Source: Escherichia coli
GTDB lineage: Bacteria > Pseudomonadota > Gammaproteobacteria > Enterobacterales > Enterobacteriaceae
Length of the DNA stretch: 64,000 nt
Assembly: GCF_013315695.1 (NCBI RefSeq)
Contig: NZ_CP054353.1
Reading direction: 5' to 3' (one strand)
The translations under genes were made by a program, and so were the position numbers. Below the pieces are notes generated by a model. That model was not told the DNA's origin. It ran no database searches and worked only from the letters and a program-made list of their open reading frames with translations. This document shows, one piece after another, positions 54,445 through 54,879 of the stretch. Position 1 is the first letter of the stretch. Each line of letters begins with the position of its first letter.

Positions 54445-54879
54445 GTGAAAAGTACCAGCGATCTGTTCAATGAAATTATTCCATTGGGTCGCTTAATCCA
54501 TATGGTTAATCAGAAGAAAGATCGCCTGCTTAACGAGTATCTGTCTCCGCTGGATATTACCGCGGCACAGTTTAAGGTGCTCTGCTCTATCCGCTGCGCG
54601 GCGTGTATTACTCCGGTTGAACTGAAAAAGGTATTGTCGGTCGACCTGGGGGCGCTGACCCGTATGCTGGATCGCCTGGTCTGTAAAGGCTGGGTGGAAA
54701 GGTTGCCGAACCCGAATGACAAGCGCGGCGTACTGGTAAAACTTACCACCAGCGGCGCGGCAATATGTGAACAATGCCATCAATTAGTTGGCCAGGACCT
54801 GCATCAAGAATTAACAAAAAACCTGACGGCGGACGAAGTGGCAACACTTGAGCATTTGCTTAAGAAAGTCCTGCCGTAA
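54445..54879 (+). CDS. marR: MarR, multiple antibiotic resistance repressor; carries S103 and H137
   Basis: 144 aa winged-helix ORF (GTG start); [14 protein letters not shown] and ATLEHLL where I recall K-12 as TTGGAA and LEYLL. Confidence 0.92.

Follow-up and report, generated by a model that had tools for sequence, protein, structure and literature searches.

In all likelihood, the marRAB locus in the window, as we call the whole stretch of 64,000 nucleotides of Escherichia coli DNA (contig NZ_CP054353.1) analysed here, is normal and functional and encodes the ancestral and commonest E. coli form of the repressor MarR, with serine at residue 103 and histidine at residue 137 (S103/H137), an allele that is already known, common and ordinary. 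Relative to K-12 these residues read as the substitutions G103S and Y137H, which the preliminary description of this DNA had held not to be derepressing. Because their frequency, the outgroup residues, the variability of the two alignment columns, the intact operator and the literature (no association with MIC, retained repressor activity) agree, we support that view and read the two differences as neutral polymorphism.

The marR gene, its control region and the adjoining mar genes

The window marR was compared with marR of K-12 MG1655 (NC_000913.3, 1619120-1619554, taken from the fetched region 1616000-1622000). Direct alignment of the proteins yielded exactly two amino acid differences, G103S and Y137H, with residues 101-106 reading TTSGAA and residues 135-139 reading LEHLL, and three further differences in the gene are synonymous (54651, 54654 and 54804). 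The claim that this MarR carries S103 and H137 relative to K-12 is thus confirmed, motifs included; K-12 itself has glycine and tyrosine at these positions, so that neither window residue is the K-12 wild type and the observation stands. The features of the locus are as follows.

53568-54233, minus strand: marC, NAAT family transporter, 221-aa ORF divergent from marRAB (NCBIfam NF008228, 376.6 bits, cutoff 162)
54234-54444, plus strand: marO, the marC-marR control region, a spacer of 211 nt whose sequence was read directly
54330-54344: Fis-like site in marO
54346-54365: marbox in marO
54382-54387: -35 element TTGACT in marO
54393-54404: core of MarR site I, the palindrome TTGCCTGGGCAA
54405-54410: -10 element TATTAT in marO
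54428-54439: core of MarR site II, the palindrome TTGCCAGGGCAA
54445-54879, plus strand: marR, 144-aa repressor with a GTG start (ORF list and alignment to MG1655)
54751-54753, plus strand: marR codon 103, AGC (Ser), GGC (Gly) in K-12, changed base 54751
54853-54855, plus strand: marR codon 137, CAT (His), TAT (Tyr) in K-12, changed base 54853
54900-55283, plus strand: marA, AraC-family activator of 127 aa, protein identical to K-12 with 1 nt difference in the gene (NF008564, 294.3 bits, cutoff 202)
55315-55533, plus strand: marB, intact ORF of 72 aa with S5L, A17T, V20I and H44Q relative to K-12 (NF007508, 141.2 bits, cutoff 87)

The marR reading frame is uninterrupted and of K-12 length, and comparison with MG1655 revealed no truncation, frameshift or deletion. 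The protein is identical to RefSeq WP_000843419.1 and scores 320.1 bits against the NCBIfam equivalog NF008565 (cutoff 240), with residues 1-144 on profile positions 1-144. Two minus-strand ORFs within marR (96 and 79 aa) were taken as chance, being without support. K-12 MarR (NP_416047.4) shares 142 of the 144 residues with the window protein, and the two loci have in common the GTG start, the length of the repressor, the layout with marC divergent from marR-marA-marB (the gene order of the K-12 annotation), the marbox, the -35 and -10 elements and MarR sites I and II. In MSB1_4I and strain 2D, whose marR DNA is identical to that of the window, marC is likewise annotated.

For the names of the elements in marO (marbox, MarR sites I and II, Fis-like site) we adopted established knowledge of this operator (Martin and Rosner). 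The region contains two TTGCC-N-GGGCAA palindromes, one over the -35/-10 region and the other over the marR ribosome-binding site, and a promoter scan independently returned TTGACT-17-TATTAT with 10 of 12 matches. The marC-marR spacer has the K-12 length and differs from it by four SNPs (54260, 54291, 54315 and 54332), all upstream of the marbox, while the sequence from 54333 to the marR GTG is that of K-12 and spans most of the Fis-like site, the marbox, the -35 and -10 elements and both MarR sites. At 54315 and 54332 the outlier is K-12, the window matching B1 strains and other Escherichia species; within the Fis-like site, SNP 54332 falls on a position that is degenerate. Ahead of the marA Shine-Dalgarno sequence, the A-run that follows the marR stop (54882-54888) is A7 in the window and A6 in K-12, and among Escherichia its natural length is A6 to A8. 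The impression that marO, marA and marB are intact therefore holds: MarA is identical to K-12, MarB is full-length, and operator, promoter and marbox are K-12-identical. No RNA family was found by Rfam within 52000-58000 on either strand.

With these elements in place, MarR dimers would bind the two marO palindromes and keep marRAB repressed, until an inducer (salicylate, copper-mediated oxidation) would release them from marO; MarA, with the help of the marbox and Fis, would then activate its own operon, acrAB-tolC, micF and other regulon genes. The four MarB substitutions, which are common, have been tabulated together for clinical strains, and a statistical association was seen between H44Q and polymyxin-minocycline synergy (PMC8597741); the set is probably one more haplotype of a lineage, read as substitutions against K-12.

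Strain background and the surrounding DNA

By local BLAST, the window matches E. coli MSB1_4I (NZ_LR898874.1) at 99.99% identity over 24150-60527 and 61723-64000, where the two are separated only by 4 mismatches in 36 kb and by one additional IS5 in the window. Phylogroup typing, which had been proposed in the preliminary description, was run on this near-identical genome. MSB1_4I is chuA positive (both primers match exactly and give a 288-bp product), arpA negative (iclR-aceK gap of 16 bp) and yjaA negative (yjaB-rrf gap of 91 bp), a combination that points to a phylogroup F- or G-type profile but is uninformative for the marR allele, as set out below.

Window positions 1-25000 lie on the minus strand of MSB1_4I (2670601-2695600), and positions 24150-60527 on its plus strand (2581150-2617527). 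From this opposite-strand mapping, the window and MSB1_4I differ by an inversion of ~90 kb with IS2 copies at its ends, inside which lie marRAB and a Qin-like prophage. Insertion sequences cluster at ~20071-30532, with IS4 at 20071-21417 and 29186-30532 and IS2 at ~24150-25466. Further along the window, lsrK (33454-35045) is split into two overlapping ORFs of 284 and 260 aa and is annotated as frameshifted in MSB1_4I, and autotransporter and fimbrial usher genes near lsrK are broken up by IS elements.

On the other side of the operon, a segment of ~7.5 kb (55536-63019) lies between marB and eamA, where K-12 has 38 bp. It carries genes for a 6-phospho-beta-glucosidase (55590-57035, minus strand), a carbohydrate porin, PTS components IIA, IIC and IIB and a GntR regulator, and a 25-kb query containing this segment is covered to at least 80% in ~2,084 of 5,426 genomes. 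Inside this island, an IS5-family (ISKpn26-like) element (60528-61723), flanked by the target duplication TTAG (60524-60527 and 61724-61727), has inserted between the genes for PTS IIB and IIC; MSB1_4I lacks it, and it may have polar effects on island genes downstream.

Frequency and polarity of the two residues

A marR gene was found in 5,415 of 5,426 complete E. coli genomes. Identity bands from whole-gene megablast are unable to split the alleles, K-12 sitting at 98.9%, and the alleles were counted with 61-nt probes centred on each SNP, for which a single mismatch lowers identity below 99% and only an exact match reaches at least 99%. At codon 103, the window probe (S103) matched exactly in 3,007 of 5,414 records and the K-12 probe (G103) in 1,186; at codon 137, the window probe (H137) matched exactly in 4,192 of 5,416 records and the K-12 probe (Y137) in 1,182. 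The ~1,220 records that match neither codon-103 probe are two mismatches from K-12, and all three that we sampled (TUM18780, O111:H8 strain 8B and 2015C-3107) carry S103/H137 together with the synonymous change T324C inside the probe. Of the complete E. coli genomes, roughly 77-78% hence have the S103/H137 pair and about 22% that of K-12. The near-equal totals of 1,186 and 1,182, each counted with its own probe, suggest that G103 and Y137 are co-inherited; a probe covering both sites would need at least 103 nt, a length at which one mismatch still scores 99% identity or above.

Among the matches listed, carriers of the window allele include O157:H7, O111:H8, ST131, UTI89, S88 and Nissle, and carriers of the K-12 allele include K-12 derivatives, C600, MC4100 and an NEB Express strain. 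As S103/H137 occurs in all of the former and in the present strain alike, and in most phylogroups, phylogroup typing says nothing about it. In MSB1_4I, strain 2D, O111:H8 strain 8B and 2015C-3107, marR is annotated with the product WP_000843419.1, and marR genes of the B1 type encode the same protein at ~10 synonymous sites from the window gene.

For the polarity of the residues, one genome per GTDB species was scanned with the MarR protein and 80 loci were kept. S103/H137 was present in the E. coli GTDB representative, E. whittamii, E. albertii, Escherichia sp. E1V33 and MOD1-EC7003. Citrobacter has mostly H103 with H or Y at 137, Salmonella enterica (two subspecies sampled) D or E at 103 with Y137, and Enterobacter mostly D103 with L137. 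The sole G103/Y137 sequence among the 80 species-level loci stems from a contig labelled 'MAG: Caldithrix sp.' (SMXE01000224.1), which we regard as K-12 contamination because its marO is identical to that of K-12. Another contig, labelled 'Chryseobacterium sp. 18061' (CACSKA010000003.1), carries an Enterobacteriaceae marR and looks contaminated or mislabelled.

Judged from these sequences, S103/H137 is the ancestral and majority state of E. coli and the genus, and G103/Y137 a derived state of a minority lineage. By parsimony, the outgroup residue states imply that G103 and Y137 arose inside E. coli, on the branch towards K-12, which differs from the window protein by this derived pair of its own that was absent from the other Escherichia species sampled. 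The preliminary description had called the two changes lineage markers; they are indeed natural polymorphism, but S103/H137, as the ancestral majority state, marks no particular lineage, and it is the K-12 residues that mark a minority one.

Constraint, published phenotypes and competing readings

Among 70 distinct Enterobacteriaceae orthologues, 77 of the 144 MarR columns are invariant, and columns 103 (D/E/H/S/G) and 137 (H/Y/L/S) rank third and sixth in variability. The window MarR keeps every invariant residue, among them A70, T72, R73, R77, C80, R86 and R94, which are constant in a 38-sequence alignment headed by the window protein, and it has no substitution at a conserved, functionally constrained residue, both changes lying in highly variable columns. 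T72 and R86 have been named as salicylate-site residues and were mutated as such (PMC10799119). An AlphaFold model built from the MarR alignment (mean pLDDT 83) has a strand at 92-100 (the wing) and helices at 102-124 and 129-142. In this model, residue 103 is predicted to stand at the N-terminus of helix 102-124, straight after the wing strand, and residue 137 in the last helix. With one residue abutting the DNA-binding wing and the other in the terminal helix of the dimerisation region, a small quantitative effect of either would be conceivable. The majority E. coli allele is without an experimental structure among the six MarR entries of the PDB that were checked (1JGS, 3VOD, 3VOE, 3VB2, 4JBA and 5H3R), as all six have the K-12 residues at 103 and 137.

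Such an effect is at the core of the reading that competes best with neutral polymorphism, although we consider it unlikely: residues 103 and 137 could subtly tune MarR (repression set-point, inducer sensitivity or dimer stability), the K-12 pair being an adaptive or laboratory-lineage change and the majority allele being measurably different. The similar numbers of genomes with either K-12 residue, the uniqueness of G103 to the K-12-type lineage among the 70 distinct orthologues, the modelled positions of the residues (103 capping the helix after the wing, 137 in the terminal helix) and the K-12 residues in all six PDB entries would fit with it. However, common descent in a clonal lineage accounts for the co-occurrence of G103 and Y137 just as well, column 137 changes from genus to genus (H, Y, L) with no compensating change elsewhere, and no difference in phenotype was reported in susceptible isolates (PMC4317672, PMC11753663, PMC8597741). 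We infer from the published phenotypes that the window protein represses as strongly as K-12 MarR, and give little credence to G103/Y137 as a derived, co-inherited change that shifted the set-point or the inducer sensitivity of the repressor. If such a shift were true, the K-12 MarR biochemistry of three decades and all six crystal structures would concern a variant of the minority, and most E. coli, including this strain, would carry an allele that answers salicylate, copper or other inducers differently.

Less probable still are G103S and Y137H as derepressing resistance mutations, by which a weaker MarR would raise MarA and AcrAB-TolC and thereby resistance to ciprofloxacin and tetracycline, a reading implied by resistance-database calls that the population and outgroup data contradict and that we hold to be very improbable. 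The CARD entry 'E. coli AcrAB-TolC with MarR mutations conferring resistance to ciprofloxacin and tetracycline' lists Y137H and G103S as scored against K-12; in the window, as in most E. coli, these residues are the ancestral state, the operator is intact and evidence of derepression was not found, so that the call follows from the choice of reference and not from a mutation. Bona fide derepressing marR lesions (frameshifts, deletion of residues 97-107, A70T/E, L33R and G15S), none of which occurs in the window marR, truncate the protein or hit invariant or near-invariant residues and arise under drug selection, unlike the S103/H137 pair. The allele is present in ~77-78% of complete genomes and in every other Escherichia species sampled, which is not the distribution of a rare derived allele, and its two positions are hypervariable among orthologues.

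Derepression is stated by several genome reports: an 8-fold up-regulation of acrA was linked to G103S/Y137H (PMC8976530), the pair was presented as resistance or over-expression mutations (PMC11504656), and as resistance mutations in wording like the CARD model name (PMC11298459); but these papers compare unrelated strains and are without isogenic controls. An isogenic study of marR alleles (PMC5890708) does not mention positions 103 and 137, and a literature search for Y137H alongside the database wording 'marR mutant conferring' had no hits. Against derepression, isolates with G103S/Y137H had levofloxacin MICs of 0.016-16 µg/mL, carriers at the lowest value included, with 'no significant association' with resistance (PMC4317672). 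The pair was the commonest MarR variation in 212 Norwegian isolates (PMC7082582), and S3N, K62R, G103S and Y137H have been grouped as common variants that were not shown to raise efflux alone (PMC8597741). Furthermore, a parent strain with S103/H137 was susceptible to tetracycline and chloramphenicol, and it took new MarR changes (L33R, A70T, G15S) or lon mutations to raise its MICs 4-16x (PMC11753663). As the rise required new marR or lon lesions, the S103/H137 MarR of this parent was repressing, and marR loss-of-function mutations are still selected on that background. Finally, errors of sequencing or assembly in the window are a negligible explanation of the marR differences, since the marR DNA is identical in the independent complete genomes MSB1_4I, strain 2D and NZ_CP033635.1 and the protein has its own RefSeq accession, annotated also in O111:H8 strains.

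For the neutral reading of S103/H137 that we prefer, the consequence lies in how marR is scored. When K-12 is the reference, about three of four E. coli genomes appear with 'MarR resistance mutations', and several published genome reports (PMC8976530, PMC11504656, PMC11298459) repeat the resistance reading. Resistance flags for 'G103S, Y137H' represent a reference bias and are to be ignored in predicting efflux-mediated resistance.
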